A stretch of DNA of 64,000 bases from Alphaproteobacteria bacterium. GTDB taxonomy: Bacteria; Pseudomonadota; Alphaproteobacteria; Micropepsales; Micropepsaceae. Under the pieces are notes generated by a model. The model did no database searches, was not told the origin of the DNA, and saw only the letters and a program-made list of their open reading frames with translations. This document shows, piece by piece, positions 3,554 through 31,462 of the stretch. Position 1 is the first letter of the stretch, and the number at the start of each line of letters is the position of its first letter. The position numbers were made by a program, and so were the translations under genes. The stretch spans positions 31,389 to 95,388 of the forward strand of contig JAFARO010000016.1 of the NCBI GenBank assembly GCA_019245415.1, in the 5' to 3' direction.

Positions 3554-3665
3554 GGTGTAAGAGGCACCCAAAGCACGAACGCCCCAGGGGGCGCACCTGC
3601 GCTGCCTGGGGGCGATCCCCCGCGCCGGGCGAGGGACCGGAAGTCCTTTAGGGCTTCCGGAAGCG
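3554..3665 (-). ncRNA. Putative ffh leader RNA (alphaproteobacterial ffh 5'UTR motif)
   Basis: Between a sigma70-like promoter and ffh; hairpins CCGGAAG/CTTCCGG, GCCCCCAGG/CCTGGGGCG, GGGTG/CACCC; match to the known ffh leader is from recollection, not a covariance-model search. Confidence 0.55.
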
Positions 3666-9630: not shown

Positions 9631-10571
9631 GGGATTTCGGCGAGGCACCGCCGCCGCTGACCCTGTTCGAGCGGTTGAAGGAAGGCCTGTCGCGCTCGAC
9701 ACGCGGCTTGAGCGACAACGTCACGGCGATCCTGTCCGGGCGAAAGCTCGACGCCGCGACGCTCGGCGAGCTCGAGGAGGCGCTGATCCGCGCCGATCTC
9801 GGCGCGGCGCAGGCGCACGCCATCGCCCAGGCCATCGGCAAGGACCGGCACAGCATTGCGATCTCGGACTACGATCTGAAGCGGCTGCTCGCCGCGGAGA
9901 TCGCGAAGATCCTGCAACCCGTCGAGAGGCAGCTCACCGTGGACCGCGCGAAGAAACCGTTCGTGGTCCTTGTCGCGGGAGTCAACGGAGCCGGCAAGAC
10001 GACGACCATCGGCAAGCTGGGCAAGCATTTCGCCCGCCAGAAGCTCAAGGTGATGTTTGCGGCCGGCGACACGTTCCGCGCCGCGGCCATCGAGCAGTTG
10101 CGGATCTGGGGCGAGCGCATCGGCGCCGAGGTCGTGGCAGGCGCGCCGGGCGCGGATGCGGCGGGGCTTGCGTTCGACGCGCTCGCCAGGGCCCGCGCCA
10201 CGGATGCCGACGTGCTCCTGATCGACACCGCCGGCAGGCTGCAGAACAAAGCCGGGCTGATGGCGGAACTGGAGAAGATCGTGCGCGTCCTGCGCAAGCT
10301 CGATCCCACAGCGCCCCACGCCACGCTCTTGGTGCTCGACGCCACCACGGGGCAGAACGCCATCGCGCAGGTGGACGTCTTCCGCAACACCGTGCCGCTG
10401 ACGGGACTGATCATGACCAAGCTGGACGGCACCGCAAAGGGCGGTATCCTGGTCGCGCTCGCCGCGCGCTTCGGGTTGCCCATCCATTTCATCGGCGTAG
10501 GCGAAGGCGAGGACGACCTGCAGACCTTCTCCGCCGAGAATTTCGCCAAGGCCCTGACGGGGGCGGCATGA
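9627..10571 (+). CDS. ftsY: SRP receptor FtsY (short NG form)
   Basis: GVNGAGKTTTIGK, DTFRAAA, DTAGRLQ, TKLDGTAKGG. Confidence 0.97.
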   Translation: MRDFGEAPPPLTLFERLKEGLSRSTRGLSDNVTAILSGRKLDAATLGELEEALIRADLGAAQAHAIAQAIGKDRHSIAISDYDLKRLLAAEIAKILQPVERQLTVDRAKKPFVVLVAGVNGAGKTTTIGKLGKHFARQKLKVMFAAGDTFRAAAIEQLRIWGERIGAEVVAGAPGADAAGLAFDALARARATDADVLLIDTAGRLQNKAGLMAELEKIVRVLRKLDPTAPHATLLVLDATTGQNAIAQVDVFRNTVPLTGLIMTKLDGTAKGGILVALAARFGLPIHFIGVGEGEDDLQTFSAENFAKALTGAA

Positions 10572-11128
10572 ATCCGCAGCTGCGCCGCCTCGCCCTCGAT
10601 CTCGGCCCGCTGGCGATATTTTTCGTCGCCTACCAGTTCCTCGGCCTCTATCCCGCGACCGCGGTGTTCATGGCGGCGGTGCTCGTCGCGCTCGCGCTCG
10701 ACTATGTCTTGGAGAAGAAGCTCTCGCCGGTGCCGATCCTGAGCGCGGTGCTGGTGCTGATCATGGGCGGGCTGACGCTCACGCTGAAGAACGCGGTGTT
10801 CATCTACATGAAGCCAACCGTGCTCTATGCGATCTTCGGCGCGACGCTGCTCGGCGGCATGGCCTTCGACCGGTTGTTCCTGAAATACCTGCTATCCCTG
10901 GGCTTCGAGATGCCCGACAGCGCCTGGCGCAGGCTGACCTTGCGCTACGGTATTTTCTTTCTCGGCCTGGCCGTATTGAACGAGATCGTGTGGCGCAACT
11001 TCCCCGAACCTACCTGGGTTGCGTTCAAGGCATGGGGGGTGATGCCCATCATCCTGCTTTTTTCGCTGGCGCAGGCGCCGTTCCTCATGCGCCATCAACG
11101 CGCTGCCGAGAGCGAGGGCGAGAACTGA
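10568..11128 (+). CDS. yciB: Inner membrane protein YciB (IspZ/septation protein A family)
   Basis: DLGPLAIFF, FIYMKPT, LNEIVWR, WVAFKAWG; follows ftsY. Confidence 0.92.
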   Translation: MNPQLRRLALDLGPLAIFFVAYQFLGLYPATAVFMAAVLVALALDYVLEKKLSPVPILSAVLVLIMGGLTLTLKNAVFIYMKPTVLYAIFGATLLGGMAFDRLFLKYLLSLGFEMPDSAWRRLTLRYGIFFLGLAVLNEIVWRNFPEPTWVAFKAWGVMPIILLFSLAQAPFLMRHQRAAESEGEN

Positions 11129-26519: not shown

Positions 26520-27473
26520 ATGGCTTTGATCGGTCCGGGCGGGCGGCCGCTGACCCAGGCGAAACCCGAGGGCGCCGCGCAGGCGACCGGGGCCGAGGGT
26601 CCCTACATCAAGGATGCCTCGATCGAGACTTTCGCCGAAGACGTCCTGGTCGCGAGCCGCGCCGTGCCGGTAATCGTCGACTTCTGGGCGCCGTGGTGCG
26701 GACCGTGCAAGCAGCTGGGCCCGGCGCTGGAAAAGGCCGTGAACGCCGCCAAGGGGGCGGTGCGCCTGGTCAAGATCAACATCGACGAGAACGAGGAGAT
26801 TGCGCGCCAGCTGCGCATCCAGTCGATCCCGACCGTCTATGCCTTCAAGGACGGCCAACCCGTGGACGGCTTCATGGGCGCCTTGCCCGAAAGCCAGGTG
26901 CGCGCCTTCGTCGAGCAGCTCGCCGGTGGGCATGGCGGCGCGGGCCACACCGAAGAGGTCATGGCCATGGCGGCGGAAGCTTTTGCCGCCGGCGACGTCT
27001 CCGCCGCTGCCCAAGCCTATGGCCACATCCTGCAGGAGGATCCCGGCCATCCCGGCGCGGTCGCGGGGCTGGCGCGCTGCTACTTGAAGAGCGGCGATCT
27101 CGAGCGCGCGCGCAACACCTTGCAGCTCGTGCGTCCCGACGCCGCCGGCGACGAAGCCGTTCGCGCGGTAGAAGCCGAATTGACCTTGGCCGAGAGCGCG
27201 ACGAAAGCGCAGGGCGATCTCGCCGCGCTCAGGGCCAAGCTCGACGCCGATCCCAAGGACCATCAGGCACGCTATGACCTGGCGCTGGCGCTCGACGCGC
27301 ATGGCGATCGCGACGGCGCGCTCGACGAGTTGCTGGAGATCGTGCGGCGCGACCGCAAATGGAACGAGGAAGCGGCGCGAAAGCATCTGGTGACATTGTT
27401 CGAGGCGATGGGCCCCGCCGACCCGCGCACGCTGAGCGCGCGGCGCAGACTGTCCTCGATCCTGTTCTCGTGA
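26520..27473 (+). CDS. ybbN: Thioredoxin-TPR chaperedoxin (YbbN/CnoX)
   Basis: [21 protein letters not shown]-terminal TPR ending [10 protein letters not shown]. Confidence 0.92.
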
Positions 27474-28120
27474 GCGGGCGCTACCACGCGTTGTCGCAGT
27501 TGCCGGAAACGCTCCCGGTGTTCCCGCTTTCGGGCGTGCTGCTGCTGCCGCGCGGCCATCTGCCGCTGAACGTCTTCGAGCCGCGCTATCTGGCGATGGT
27601 GGACTTCGCCTTCTCGTCCACGCGGTTGATCGGCATGGTCCAGCCTTCCGAGCCCGAGGAGAAGACGCTGAAGCCCGCGCTGCACCCGGTCGGCTGCGCG
27701 GGACGGATCACGTCCTATCGCGAGAACGAGGACGGACGCTATCTCATCACGCTGACCGGCATCTGCCGATTCCGCTGCGAGGAGGAGATCGAGGCGGCCA
27801 CGCCGTTCCGCCAGCTGCGAGTGTCGTTTTCGGAGTTCGCCGGAGACCTGGAACCCGCCGACGATTCGGCTTTCCCGCGCGACCATCTGCTCCACGCGCT
27901 GAAAGGTTATCTTTCGCGCCGCGACCTCAAGGCGGATTGGCAGAGCGTGATGAACGCGCCGGCGGAGACGCTGGTGAATGCGCTGGCGATGCTTTGTCCC
28001 TTCGAGCCGGCGGAAAAACAGGCGCTGCTCGAAGCCAAGGGCTGGAGCGAGCGGGTGGCGATCCTGGTGGCACTGCTGGAAATGGCGGGCGCCGCGGCAG
28101 GGCCCGCATCGATCAACTGA
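27470..28120 (+). CDS. LON peptidase substrate-binding domain protein
   Basis: [22 protein letters not shown]; no AAA+/protease domain. Confidence 0.9.
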
Positions 28121-28131
28121 CGGCAGGAGCC

Positions 28132-28323
28132 ATGGAACCCGATCCCAAGCTGCTGGAAATCCTGGTCTGCCCGGTGACCAAGGGGACGCTGGTCTATGAC
28201 CGCGAAGCGCGGGAGCTGATCAGCCGCAGCGCCGGCCTCGCCTATCCGATCCGCGACGGCATCCCGATCATGCTGAGCGAAGAAGCGCGCGAGCTGACGG
28301 AAGCGGAAAGAACCCAGCGATGA
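28132..28323 (+). CDS. Trm112/YcaR (UPF0434) family protein
   Basis: [27 protein letters not shown]. Confidence 0.92.
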
Positions 28324-28667
28324 CGCAAGCGGCGGAGCGCCCTTGGCCGCTGGAGCTGCGCCTCGATGCGGCCAAGACGACGCTGACGGTGAGCTTCGAC
28401 ACCGGCGAGCGCTTCGCGCTGCCGGCGGAATATCTGCGCGTCGAATCGCCGAGCGCCGAAGTGCAGGGTCATGGACCGGGGCAGAAGCAGATCGTCAGGG
28501 GAAAAGAACACGTCGCCATCGCGGCGCTCGAGCCGGTGGGCAACTACGCGGTCCGCATCCGCTTCGACGACGGCCACGACACCGGACTCTTCAGCTGGGA
28601 GTATCTCCTCGAGCTTGGGCGCGAGCACAAACAGCGCTGGGCGGCATACCGCAAGTCCACGGGCTGA
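28320..28667 (+). CDS. DUF971 (GBBH-like N-terminal) protein
   Basis: [40 protein letters not shown]. Confidence 0.9.
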
Positions 28668-28703
28668 TATAAGATTCGACCGACTTCACCGGCTAGGACC
28701 TTG

Positions 28704-29162
28704 ATGCTTCGCACCGATCACATCGTGTTTCCGGTCTGGAACGCGAAGGCGAGCCTGGCCTTCTATCGCAACGTTCTGGGCTTGAAACTCGTGAACGCAA
28801 TCAGCGGCCCGGATTGGGGCGGCTATCCGTGGCTGATGATCGTGCTTGCGACCGCAGACGGGCGCGAGATCGTGCTGGTCAGTCTCAAAGGCGCCAAGCG
28901 GCCGCGGAAGGGCAAGCTCGCGCGCGACGTCCGGCACCTGGCGTTTTCGGAGACCTCGGTGGCGAAACTCGAGGGCTGGCGCCGCAAACTCGCCGCCGCC
29001 AAGGTGGCGTTCTGGGAAGAGAAGCACGGCGCCCAGCACTCCGTGTACTTCGAGGATCCCAACGGCGTGGTTCTCGAGATCACGGCGCCGCCGACGCGCG
29101 TTCCGCGGCGCGAGAATGCAGCCGCGCTGGCGGCCGCCTCACGCTGGATCGCTGCTTCGTGA
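28704..29162 (+). CDS. VOC/glyoxalase family protein
   Basis: DHIVF, FYRNVLGL, RHLAF, SVYFEDPNGVVLEI. Confidence 0.88.
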   Translation: MLRTDHIVFPVWNAKASLAFYRNVLGLKLVNAISGPDWGGYPWLMIVLATADGREIVLVSLKGAKRPRKGKLARDVRHLAFSETSVAKLEGWRRKLAAAKVAFWEEKHGAQHSVYFEDPNGVVLEITAPPTRVPRRENAAALAAASRWIAAS

Positions 29163-30094
29163 GCGAAGCGGACAAACAGCCGGCCTTGCCGCCCTCGCCC
29201 GCGTTCCGGCCCGGAACGTTGCGCGACCGCGAGCGCGTTGCCATCGTTCGCGGCCAGGACGGTGGACGCTACACCGACATCTATCATGCGGTGCTGCGCG
29301 TGCCCTGGTGGGCGTTCTTCTTGGGGTTGGCTGCGGCGTTCGCCGCCGTCAACGCCGTCTTCGCGCTTCTCTACCTCGTGGACCGCGGCGGCATCGAGCA
29401 TGCGCGGCCGGGAAATTTCTGGGACGCGTTCGTGTTCAGCGCCCAGACCATGGGCTCGATCAACTACAGCGTCATGGTGCCGAAATCGGCATACGTGAAT
29501 CTGCTGGTAATCTTCGAGGCGTTCGCGGGCTACGTCGTGCTGGCGCTGTTCACCGGCATGATCTTCGCCCGCTTCTCGCGGCCCTTCGCGCGCATGATAT
29601 TTTCGCGCGTCGCGGTCATCGCGCCGTTCGACGGCGTTCCGACCTTGATGTTCCGCGCCGCCAACCAGCGCGGCAACCAGGTGCTCGACGCGTCCGTGCG
29701 AGTGACTTTGGCCCAGCAGCACCGCAGCCTCGAAGGGCTGGTGATGCGCCGCTTCCAGGAATTGGAGCTGGTGCGCTCGCGCACCTCGCTGTTCGCGCTG
29801 TCCTGGACCATCATGCACAGGATCGACGCGACAAGCCCGCTGCACGGCGTTTCCGACCAGGACATGGCCGAGCGCCAGATGGAGATCGTCGTGCTGCTGT
29901 CGGGATCGGATGCGACCATGGCGGAGACGATCTACGCGCGCCATTCCTATGCGCCGTCCGACATCCTGCGCGGCCATCACTTCGTCGATGTTCTCGGAGT
30001 GACGCCCAAAGGCGTGCGGATGGTCGATCTGACCCGCTTCCACGATACGGTTCCGGTGGAGGGCCTGCCACAGACGAACCCGCAGCAGGACTGA
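29159..30094 (+). CDS. KirBac-like inward-rectifier channel with non-canonical filter
   Basis: Slide helix DIYHAVL, TM1, pore helix FWDAFVFSAQT, TM2 ...FARFSRP, TLMFRAANQR, SWTIMHRIDATSPL, ARHSY, FVDV, RFHD. Confidence 0.9.
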   Translation: MSEADKQPALPPSPAFRPGTLRDRERVAIVRGQDGGRYTDIYHAVLRVPWWAFFLGLAAAFAAVNAVFALLYLVDRGGIEHARPGNFWDAFVFSAQTMGSINYSVMVPKSAYVNLLVIFEAFAGYVVLALFTGMIFARFSRPFARMIFSRVAVIAPFDGVPTLMFRAANQRGNQVLDASVRVTLAQQHRSLEGLVMRRFQELELVRSRTSLFALSWTIMHRIDATSPLHGVSDQDMAERQMEIVVLLSGSDATMAETIYARHSYAPSDILRGHHFVDVLGVTPKGVRMVDLTRFHDTVPVEGLPQTNPQQD

Positions 30095-30121
30095 GACTTC
30101 TCCGCGCGCCGTGCCGCCGCC

Positions 30122-30442
30122 TCAGGCCCCTTTGTCCTTGTGCTCCTCTTCCTGCTCGATTTTTGTGATCGGCGCGGTGGTGAAGAGGTATTCCTTGAGC
30201 TCCTTGTCGAAGCGCGGTTCGTGGCGGCGGATCCATTCGAGCACCATGGCGGCGTGCTCGATCTCCTCATTGGCGTTGTGATTGAGGATCGCCTTGAGGT
30301 CCGGGTCGTCGGTATCGTCGGCGCGCTGACGGTACCAATCCACCGCCTCAAGCTCCTCCATCAGCGAGGTGATGGCGTAGTGCAGATGCAGCGTCTTGCG
30401 GCTCAACCGCTCGCGCGGGACATGAAGAACTTCGCTGGACAT
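30122..30442 (-). CDS. Encapsulin-cargo-type ferritin-like protein (EncFtn family)
   Basis: SLMEELEAVDWYRQR and HNANEEIEHAAMVLEWIRR ferroxidase motifs. Confidence 0.9.
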   Translation of the reverse strand: MSSEVLHVPRERLSRKTLHLHYAITSLMEELEAVDWYRQRADDTDDPDLKAILNHNANEEIEHAAMVLEWIRRHEPRFDKELKEYLFTTAPITKIEQEEEHKDKGA

Positions 30443-30493
30443 GGAATTTCCTTCCTTTGCGGTGGCAACGATACGGATTCGCCGCCGCCTCGA

Positions 30494-31462
30494 CTAGCAC
30501 TCCAGCACGACTTTTCCGATGGCCTGGCGCGACGAAAGCAGCCGCATCGCGTCCACGGCTTTGTCGAGCGGCAGCCGCGCGCCGACATGGGGCTTGAGTT
30601 TTCCTTGCGCCAGCAGCGCGTCGATGGCGGCGATGTTCTCGCGGCCCTGTTGCGGGAAGCGCCGGCCATATTCTCCCGCGCGCAGTCCCATCAGCGAGAA
30701 TCCCTTGATCAGCGCGAGGTTCACCGGCAAGACCGGAATGCGTCCGCCGGCGAATCCGACCGCCACGAGCCGGCCCCCGAAGGCGATGCAATGCGTCGAT
30801 TCGTCGAAGACGTCGCCACCGACGGGATCGTAGATCACGTCGGCGCCCCTGCCGCCGGTCAAGGCCTTCACCGAGTCGCGGAAGCCGTCCGGCGCGAGGA
30901 CGTGCTCCACGCCATAATCCTCGAGGAAGCGCCGCTTGTCCGGCGTCGATGCGGTCGCGATGACGTTGGCTCCGAGGACGCGGGCAAGATCGACGGCGGC
31001 CAGCCCGACGCCGCCCGCCGCGCCATGCACCAGCAGCCACTCGCCTTGCCCGATCGCGGCGCGGCGCACGAGGCCGACATACGCGGTCAAATACGCGGCG
31101 GTGAAGGCGGCCGCGACTGCATCGTCGACACCTTTCGGAATCGCGCGCACCCGCGCCGCCTCGGCTTGCACCTCTTCGGCAAAACAGCCCAGCGCGCTCA
31201 CCATCACGCGCATTCCGGGCGCCAAGGCCTCCACTTCTTCGCCCACAGCCACGATCTCGCCGGCGCCTTCCATGCCAGGCGTGAAGGGAAGCTGCGGCTT
31301 GTGCTGATAGAGACCCTGCACCATCAGCACATCGGGGAAATTGACGGCCGCGGCATGGAGCCGAATCCGCACCTGGCCGGGGCCTGGCGGCGGCAGGCTG
31401 ACCGTCTCGAACGCAAGGCCGTCAAGGCCCGCACTGAGACTGCGGCAGACCAGAGCCTTCAT
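30494..31462 (-). CDS. NADPH:quinone oxidoreductase family (MDR)
   Basis: AVNFPD, PFTPGME, GAAGGVG, DPVGG. Confidence 0.92.
   Translation of the reverse strand: MKALVCRSLSAGLDGLAFETVSLPPPGPGQVRIRLHAAAVNFPDVLMVQGLYQHKPQLPFTPGMEGAGEIVAVGEEVEALAPGMRVMVSALGCFAEEVQAEAARVRAIPKGVDDAVAAAFTAAYLTAYVGLVRRAAIGQGEWLLVHGAAGGVGLAAVDLARVLGANVIATASTPDKRRFLEDYGVEHVLAPDGFRDSVKALTGGRGADVIYDPVGGDVFDESTHCIAFGGRLVAVGFAGGRIPVLPVNLALIKGFSLMGLRAGEYGRRFPQQGRENIAAIDALLAQGKLKPHVGARLPLDKAVDAMRLLSSRQAIGKVVLEC

Follow-up and report, generated by a model that had tools for sequence, protein, structure and literature searches.

Can a channel of the inward rectifier (Kir) type that has lost both glycines of its potassium signature still be a potassium channel, and if not, what has it become? 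The question is raised by a gene in a 64,000-nucleotide stretch of DNA from an Alphaproteobacteria bacterium of the family Micropepsaceae (GenBank assembly GCA_019245415.1, contig JAFARO010000016.1, positions 31,389 to 95,388 of the forward strand); this whole stretch is referred to below as the window, and positions are counted from its first nucleotide. The gene lies at 29159-30094 and encodes a homologue of the bacterial KirBac channels. Few functional motifs are as strongly conserved as the signature T-x-G-Y-G, and natural exceptions to it reveal how ion selectivity evolves. Judged from its sequence, the gene is an intact, vertically inherited member of the KirBac fold in which this K+ signature has been replaced, within the gene, by a conserved G-S-I-N-Y-S. 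By analogy with homologues of measured ion flux, its product is probably a tetrameric, gated channel for cations that discriminates less between K+ and Na+.

The coding sequence opens with a GTG codon at 29159, which shares nucleotides with the stop of the gene before it, continues as a frame of 311 codons without interruption, and closes with a stop codon at 30092-30094. The choice of start is backed by a relative of 311 amino acids that matches at 97% identity with full coverage (P0001). The best match among PDB chains is KirBac3.1 (E = 1.7e-69, phmmer), with KirBac1.1 next (E = 6e-63); residues 33-297 align to residues 29-293 of KirBac3.1 over 265 residues without a gap, at approximately 42-45% identity (KirBac3.1/KirBac1.1). 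Pfam finds an uninterrupted IRK_C domain (PF17655) at residues 147-306 (3.4e-31, 108.7 bits against a cutoff of 22.5) and identifies the pore of two transmembrane (TM) helices as Ion_trans_2 (2e-6, 28.0 bits against a cutoff of 22.5). The Pfam model for the IRK transmembrane part reaches only 16.7 bits, under its cutoff of 22.7, and an NCBIfam search of the channel protein returned no family match. An AlphaFold2 monomer model (mean predicted local distance difference test score, pLDDT, of 72) has the helices expected of such a channel followed by a beta-rich C-terminal domain, and the top Foldseek matches to this model are all Kir or KirBac structures (KirBac3.1, E = 6e-31, template modeling score 0.6-0.67). 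The channel and its parts are located as follows.

29159-30094, plus strand: coding sequence of the KirBac-type channel homologue, 311 amino acids (open reading frame and translation)
29267-29299, plus strand: slide helix, residues 37-47 (AlphaFold2 helix; T39, D40, Y42 and H43 invariant in 27 relatives)
29306-29374, plus strand: TM1, residues 50-72 (AlphaFold2 helix)
29417-29449, plus strand: pore helix, residues 87-97 (AlphaFold2 helix), with Trp88 (TGG, 29420-29422) and Val92 (GTG, 29432-29434)
29453-29470, plus strand: filter G99-S100-I101-N102-Y103-S104, replacing (A/G)-T-I-G-Y-G (alignment to KirBac3.1)
29489-29575, plus strand: TM2, residues 111-139 (AlphaFold2 helix), with Glu120, hinge Gly124 and bundle-crossing Phe136
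29597-30076, plus strand: cytoplasmic beta-rich Kir domain (IRK_C), residues 147-306 (Pfam, beta strands of the model, Foldseek)

A linker reading FARFSRP follows the TM2 helix at residues 136-142, and Phe136 aligns with Tyr132 of KirBac3.1. E120, G124, F136, A137, R138, S140, R141 and P142 are invariant among the 27 relatives, as are the filter residues G99, S100, N102 and Y103. A preliminary description of this DNA had listed a slide helix, TM1 and TM2, a TM2 glutamate, an ARFSRP linker and an uninterrupted cytoplasmic domain, all of which are present. In architecture and length the channel equals KirBac3.1 of Magnetospirillum (PDB 1XL4, 2WLJ, 7N9L) and KirBac1.1 of Burkholderia (PDB 1P7B), with which it has in common the slide helix, TM1, the pore helix, the TM2 glutamate and hinge glycine, the aromatic gate, the ARF(S/T)RP linker and the IRK_C domain. 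Of the features of the Kir/KirBac family (TC 1.A.2), the protein has the IRK_C domain and the pore made of slide helix, two TM helices and P-loop, and lacks the signature T-x-G-Y/F-G. By sequence it qualifies as a Kir/KirBac homologue, but the name potassium channel should be avoided in its annotation. Among database entries, hundreds that bear the name "inward rectifier potassium channel" or "ATP-sensitive inward rectifier potassium channel 10" probably lack potassium selectivity.

The departure itself is seen at 29447-29470, where the codons ACC ATG GGC TCG ATC AAC TAC AGC read T97, M98, G99, S100, I101, N102, Y103 and S104. The phmmer alignment to KirBac3.1 sets FSAQTMGSINYSVMVP over FSVQTMATIGYGKLIP. 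Residues 100-104 are therefore S-I-N-Y-S in the channel and T-I-G-Y-G in KirBac3.1, that is, threonine is exchanged for serine, the first glycine for asparagine and the second glycine for serine. This had been the central claim of the preliminary description, and both the codon reading and the loss of the two glycines are borne out by the ungapped alignment. The same DNA, with zero differences across the filter, is present in two independent assemblies, one of a rock metagenome and one of a root metagenome, and a contig of 94% identity from a further run has no listed difference within 29447-29470. A protein search returned 2451 relatives, and the motif was inspected in the best 120 (61-97% identity, mostly labeled Rhizomicrobium sp. 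or soil metagenome). G-Y-G is absent from all of these 120, which instead have G-S-I-N-Y-S or a close variant of it (for example G-S-I-N-Y-T). In the wider family, represented by the 150 best cluster representatives (37-62% identity, a few short fragments aside), 143 have a canonical [TS]-[IVLM]-G-[YF]-G filter, so S-I-N-Y-S lies far from the family norm. SIGYG is found in five of the 150; the exchange of threonine for serine alone is therefore not unusual.

Is the altered filter maintained, or is the gene decaying? Twenty-six species-level genomes encode G-S-I-N-Y-S, and among them the residues are constant while the codons vary synonymously. Asn102 is encoded by AAC in 16 and AAT in 10, Ser100 by TCG, TCC or TCA, and Tyr103 by TAC or TAT. 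Ser104 draws on both serine codon families (AGC/AGT in 22, TCC/TCG in 4), the route between which likely runs via threonine, the other common residue at this position. The median pairwise ratio of nonsynonymous to synonymous substitution rates (dN/dS; Nei-Gojobori method, NG86) is 0.28 for channels without G-Y-G (non-GYG), 0.24 for orthologues with GTLGYG and 0.19 for those with GSIGYG, values that are rough since dS is close to saturation in many pairs. The membrane and cytoplasmic halves of the non-GYG channels are alike in this respect (0.27-0.28 and 0.28). These patterns indicate that the clade with SINYS-type filters is maintained by purifying selection. The preliminary description had judged that this did not look like general decay and had proposed a search for a conserved clade under purifying selection; such a clade exists, and the opposite outcome it had considered, a unique allele among TIGYG relatives, was not seen, as the 120 best relatives and the 26 genomes keep the motif. 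We ruled out that the filter reflects an error in sequencing or assembly, or an allele found only here, on the strength of the identical independent assemblies, the 120 relatives and the 26 species genomes, and we ruled out a pseudogene on the strength of the intact frame, the dN/dS and the invariant gating residues Gly124, Phe136 and Glu120 in an intact fold.

A filter created by such an error, or by a mutation that recently inactivated a gene in decay, could point for support to one relative (L080, about 10001-10813, Rhizomicrobium metagenome-assembled genome SE1507), a Kir orthologue with filter SANYT that has an in-frame stop (...ALSP*GRRVV...) and could be either a pseudogene or the result of misassembly. 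Set against the recurrence of the same DNA in two independent metagenome assemblies, a motif that persists in at least 120 proteins as distant as 61% identity and, with synonymous codon changes, in 26 species genomes, a dN/dS of 0.28 and an intact reading frame, this explanation has a negligible probability.

Given that the motif is conserved, we asked where the gene sits in related genomes. A scan of one genome per species gave 419 matching stretches, the best 80 of which were kept as loci for synteny and filter counts. Nearly all belong to Micropepsales/Rhizomicrobium-like Alphaproteobacteria, and they include a cultured carrier, Rhizomicrobium electricum DSM 21034 (L052), with filter GSINYS. 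In practically all 80 loci, including those with a canonical filter, the channel occupies the same gene slot. The order is thioredoxin-TPR, LON-domain protein, Trm112, DUF971, sometimes a VOC/glyoxalase gene, and then the channel, followed on the opposite strand by an EncFtn-like ferritin, a quinone oxidoreductase, a TetR regulator, DoxX and dihydroorotate dehydrogenase (DHODH). Twelve of the 80 loci have a canonical filter (GTLGYG in nine, GSIGYG in three), and 69 loci are non-GYG by our count. Because the canonical loci share the slot, the gene with S-I-N-Y-S corresponds by position to a canonical KirBac gene, as its orthologue, and is not an extra paralogue, so the filter changed within an orthologous gene. 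We rejected a paralogue beside a canonical copy for the 64-kb window, in which there is neither another Kir-like gene nor a channel-like open reading frame with a P-loop of the TxGYG type, and no assembly among the best 80 loci has a canonical and a non-canonical copy together. The only assembly with two copies is DATASL01, in which two syntenic regions (L035 and L064) carry filters SIGHS, with a duplication, and SANYT; this is probably a mixed bin rather than a case of true paralogues.

In place of the signature, the 69 species-level non-GYG loci show 23 distinct strings of five residues. SINYS is the most frequent (27 loci), followed by SANYT (9), SINYT (6), STNYT and SVDKS (3 each), and SLNYN and SLSYT (2 each); further variants include SISYT, SIGHS, SIPYS, SIAYT, SDNET and one-residue deletions. 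Through this variety the asparagine is retained in 57 loci, the tyrosine in 58 and a serine or threonine at the last position in 66. Some members also have five residues of the pore helix, VQT(F/I)G, duplicated just before the filter (L025, L035 and protein P0100), and this duplication co-occurs with the tyrosine-less filters SLSQS, SIGHS and SLSHN. Elsewhere in the family, distant KirBac relatives of approximately 700 amino acids (P0158, P0165 and others) have an N-terminal LtrA (low temperature requirement A, PF06772) membrane domain fused to a canonical Kir pore and IRK_C, and P0226 (717 amino acids) has two Kir units in tandem.

If the filter has been remodeled under selection, has its surrounding changed with it? 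We compared 169 N-Y-x proteins with 42 canonical relatives, and the best discriminating positions outside the signature, 88 and 92, both lie in the pore helix. Every non-GYG protein has Leu, Ile or Val at position 92, where 39 of the 42 canonical relatives have Phe. At position 88, Trp is shared by 168 of the 169 N-Y-x proteins and all other non-GYG variants, as opposed to 3 of the 42 canonical relatives. The combination of Trp88 and an aliphatic residue at 92 is present in every aberrant filter variant, the most radical ones included, and the pore-helix motif F93-S94-x-x-T97 is invariant. The contrast holds for the characterized KirBacs as well, which have T-I/V-G-Y-G where the channel has S-I-N-Y-S, a small residue at the start of the pore helix where the channel has Trp88, and the middle Phe of F-F-F-S where the channel has Val92 (Leu or Ile in relatives). 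Counting from the conserved S-x-(E/Q)-T, we take position 92 to be equivalent to KcsA Trp67, whose aromatic ring packs immediately behind the filter. If the asparagine side chain sits behind the filter, a smaller residue at 92 is to be expected, and Trp88 and an aliphatic residue in place of Phe92 were probably re-fitted there along with the motif change.

These observations suggest how the channel could work. The preliminary description had envisaged a non-selective, differently selective or regulatory Kir subunit. The protein would still assemble as a tetrameric gated pore, given the conservation of its hinge (Gly124), gate (Phe136), slide helix and cytoplasmic domain. Loss of the two glycines would prevent a complete carbonyl cage of four sites from forming, and monovalent cations would be conducted with much reduced discrimination between K+ and Na+. 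Both filter glycines adopt left-handed backbone conformations, asparagine is the L-residue most often found in such a conformation, and N-x-S/T commonly forms an Asx-turn. As a structural guess, Asn102 may take the left-handed conformation of the first filter glycine, and the N-x-S/T pattern suggests an Asx-turn in place of the glycine turn, with the smaller residue at 92 making room for the asparagine side chain. This would give a structural rationale for the joint retention of the asparagine and the serine or threonine; it also leaves room for the survival of part or all of the K+ cage. Reduced selectivity is the behavior of the nearest measured precedents. NirBac1.1 and NirBac1.2 are tetramers through which Na+, K+ and Rb+ pass with little selectivity and Ca2+ does not (PMC4607889), the first-glycine mutation G154S ("weaver") of GIRK2 leads to loss of selectivity (PMC9001731), and the NaK channel has only two ion sites (PMC9822992). 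A bolder version, in which the N-Y-S/T filter and its co-adapted pore helix form an undescribed filter architecture on the Kir scaffold with an ion preference of its own, and not merely a broken K+ filter, is less likely, and we hold it only tentatively.

Several observations weigh against the reading of a channel of reduced selectivity. Outside the P-loop, the ratio of Kir distance to flanking-protein distance is approximately 1.4 for non-GYG channels and 0.9 for GTLGYG ones, about 1.6-fold higher, so the non-GYG proteins evolve faster despite a similar dN/dS. This higher ratio and the 23 filter variants could reflect partly relaxed constraint and no single defined new function. Residues 101-103 are the least confident internal part of the AlphaFold2 model (pLDDT below 50), and the model, being of a monomer, carries no information on pore geometry. 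TbIRK is a Kir homologue without the signature that nevertheless has a K+/Na+ selectivity above 7 (PMC5429665). On a single origin the trees give mixed indications. In a tree of four flanking proteins the GTLGYG species form the sister clade with 96% bootstrap, and the three GSIGYG species fall inside the group of non-GYG species. In a tree of the Kir proteins with the P-loop masked, the syntenic group reaches 92% and monophyly of the non-GYG proteins only 7.5% bootstrap. A first neighbor-joining tree had put GTLGYG within the non-GYG clade, a placement that was not reproducible. The shared Trp88 and aliphatic residue at 92 favor one origin of the non-GYG clade; multiple origins, replacement in the GSIGYG lineage and exchange of the P-loop by recombination are all conceivable alternatives.

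With what else in the literature does this channel compare? The closest parallel is a set of KirBac homologues with non-canonical filters that have already been published, NirBac1.1 and NirBac1.2 of Anaeromyxobacter and NirBac2.1 of Gemmatimonas, the last with filter TTGTD (Zubcevic 2015, PMC4607889). The channel described here resembles them in having the Kir architecture outside the P-loop and a genuine departure from TxGYG, in coming from soil bacteria, and in that the filter is an evolutionary hot spot between close relatives. It is most like NirBac2.1, in which the overall P-loop is kept and the signature alone altered, and unlike NirBac1.1 and NirBac1.2, in which the whole P-loop is swapped for unrelated sequence. 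The two groups differ in phylum and motif, ours being from the alphaproteobacterial order Micropepsales and having N-Y-S/T; in extent, three genes against 69 of the 80 loci kept from 419 stretches; and in that, for our clade, the same locus also holds canonical orthologues and pore-helix residues co-vary with the filter. Flux has been measured for NirBac1.1 and NirBac1.2. The nearest relatives of our clade within Micropepsales are canonical GYG orthologues, which suggests an origin independent of NirBac. Searches of the literature for SINYS, GSINY, and Rhizomicrobium together with inward rectifier found nothing relevant, and neither the clade nor the motif appears in the literature searched.

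Other comparisons are less close. Substitution of the first glycine of G-Y-G within a Kir fold is seen in the weaver mutation of GIRK2 (Kir3.2), which is G156S in mouse numbering, and clade members with SLSYT or SISYT have a serine at exactly this position. The GIRK2 G154S and KCNJ5 filter changes are pathogenic single mutations in which K+ selectivity is lost (PMC9001731), whereas those of our channel are fixed, accompanied by second-site changes, and under selection in many species. Tetrameric P-loop cation channels with a modified signature also include NaK of Bacillus cereus (TVGDG) and the cyclic nucleotide-gated (CNG) channels. CNG channels, too, have fewer ion sites and conduct monovalent cations without selectivity. 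NaK retains both glycines and loses the tyrosine, the reverse of our channel, and is without the Kir cytoplasmic domain; its modified signature goes with fewer ion sites and non-selective monovalent conduction (PMC9822992). TbIRK of Trypanosoma brucei shares with our channel a Kir fold without TxGYG, and differs in being eukaryotic, in a predicted filter, GGYVG, that keeps glycines, and in a measured K+ selectivity above 7:1 (PMC5429665).

Three other readings of the motif have to be weighed against a cation channel of reduced selectivity. The channel could still be K+-selective if Asn102 and Ser104 mimicked the backbone conformations of the first and second glycine, with the carbonyls of S100, I101, N102 and Y103 lining four K+ sites and both side chains directed away from the pore. 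The retention of Tyr103, Thr97, Ser100 (with a hydroxyl like that of Thr) and the loop length, with no gap against KirBac3.1, agrees with this idea, as does the general preference of asparagine for left-handed conformations, and position 92 shrinks just where an asparagine side chain would need space. The selectivity of TbIRK without the signature (PMC5429665) is a precedent, but in GIRK2 the substitution of the first glycine in G154S abolishes selectivity (PMC9001731). Members of the clade, moreover, tolerate Ala, Thr, Val, Leu or Met at position 101, the loss of one residue, and the replacement of N-Y by D-K or N-E, changes with which a precise four-site cage is hard to reconcile. In semisynthetic KcsA only a D-amino acid could reportedly substitute for the first filter glycine, which weighs in the same direction. 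A preserved K+ filter is consequently unlikely, in our estimation, although it deserves to be taken seriously. The converse idea, that the filter has acquired a new and specific selectivity, for example for Na+, NH4+, H+ or a divalent cation, would have a ring of Asn102 and the hydroxyls of Ser/Thr104 lining the outer pore and the variants tuning it to soil conditions. The restriction to asparagine at 102 in 57 of 69 species and to a hydroxyl residue at 104 in 66 of 69, the latter through two serine codon families, argues for a specific chemical role, and the charged variants SVDKS and SDNET at the same site, together with purifying selection on a par with that of canonical orthologues, can be read in the same way. 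The locus, however, has no ion-specific transport or regulatory gene, its neighbors being housekeeping genes, and the NirBac precedents are plainly non-selective and impermeable to Ca2+ (PMC4607889), so we consider a dedicated new selectivity improbable.

A protein that does not conduct at all, acting instead as a sensor or scaffold anchored in the membrane or as a silent subunit with a modulatory effect on another channel, would account for the filter being the sole strongly remodeled part, for a cytoplasmic domain constrained like the membrane part (dN/dS of 0.28 and 0.27-0.28), and for the P-loop deletions or duplications of some members. Residues that are relevant only to a conducting gated pore are nevertheless invariant (Gly124, Phe136, Glu120 and F93-S94-x-x-T97), a canonical partner is found neither within the 64-kb window nor, as a second copy, in any assembly among the best 80 loci, and NirBac channels without GYG conduct (PMC4607889). 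We therefore regard loss of conduction as very unlikely and retain the conducting, weakly selective channel as the favored interpretation.

Departures from the signature in the Kir branch had until now comprised three NirBac genes from two genera. The present, still diversifying clade spans a bacterial order with one dominant motif (N-Y-S/T), its loss of GYG is perfectly coupled to the two pore-helix changes, its GYG orthologues at the same site in sister species are matched controls, and further natural variants, among them the weaver serine, one-residue deletions and D-K, are at hand. Experiments are made feasible by the cultured Rhizomicrobium electricum DSM 21034. If the filter does have an ion preference of its own, the Micropepsales locus would be a natural series in which one orthologous gene left GYG and explored at least 23 filter variants, and the sequence-to-selectivity map of tetrameric P-loop channels would become testable with natural, selected proteins.

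The genes 5' of the channel in the window are the following.

28132-28323, plus strand: Trm112-like gene (PF03966, 1e-17)
28320-28667, plus strand: DUF971/GBBH-like_N gene (PF06155, 1e-28)
28701-29162, plus strand: VOC/glyoxalase-family gene (PF00903, 5e-17), the stop codon of which overlaps the channel start (GTGA)

Together with the channel they form an operon-like string at 28132-30094 on the plus strand, with stop/start overlaps between Trm112 and DUF971 (ATGA) and between VOC and Kir (GTGA). Trm112 and DUF971 lie 5' of the channel in the same order and strand in approximately 75 of the 80 loci, canonical-filter loci included. The VOC/glyoxalase gene is immediately 5' of the channel in 11 of the 80, and in most related genomes DUF971 itself adjoins the Kir gene on the 5' side. 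An EncFtn-like gene of the encapsulated-ferritin type (PF22277, 5e-39) lies at 30122-30442 on the minus strand, convergent with the channel, and 27 nucleotides separate the two stop codons; such a gene is found just 3' of the channel in about one-third of related loci. The neighbors are housekeeping genes that give no pointer to the transported ion.

Two long open reading frames overlap the channel gene, at 28823-30043 on the minus strand and 28846-30168 on the plus strand (406 and 440 amino acids). We took the antisense frame and the other overlapping frames to be GC-rich shadow frames, as the plus-strand channel frame alone accounts for the homology. A promoter and terminator scan of 27200-30600 gave nothing that exceeds the shuffled expectation, and there are no tRNA genes in the window. 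A match to the ffh small RNA family (RF01793) is located at 3574-3626 on the minus strand, with 52.7 bits against a gathering score of 35.

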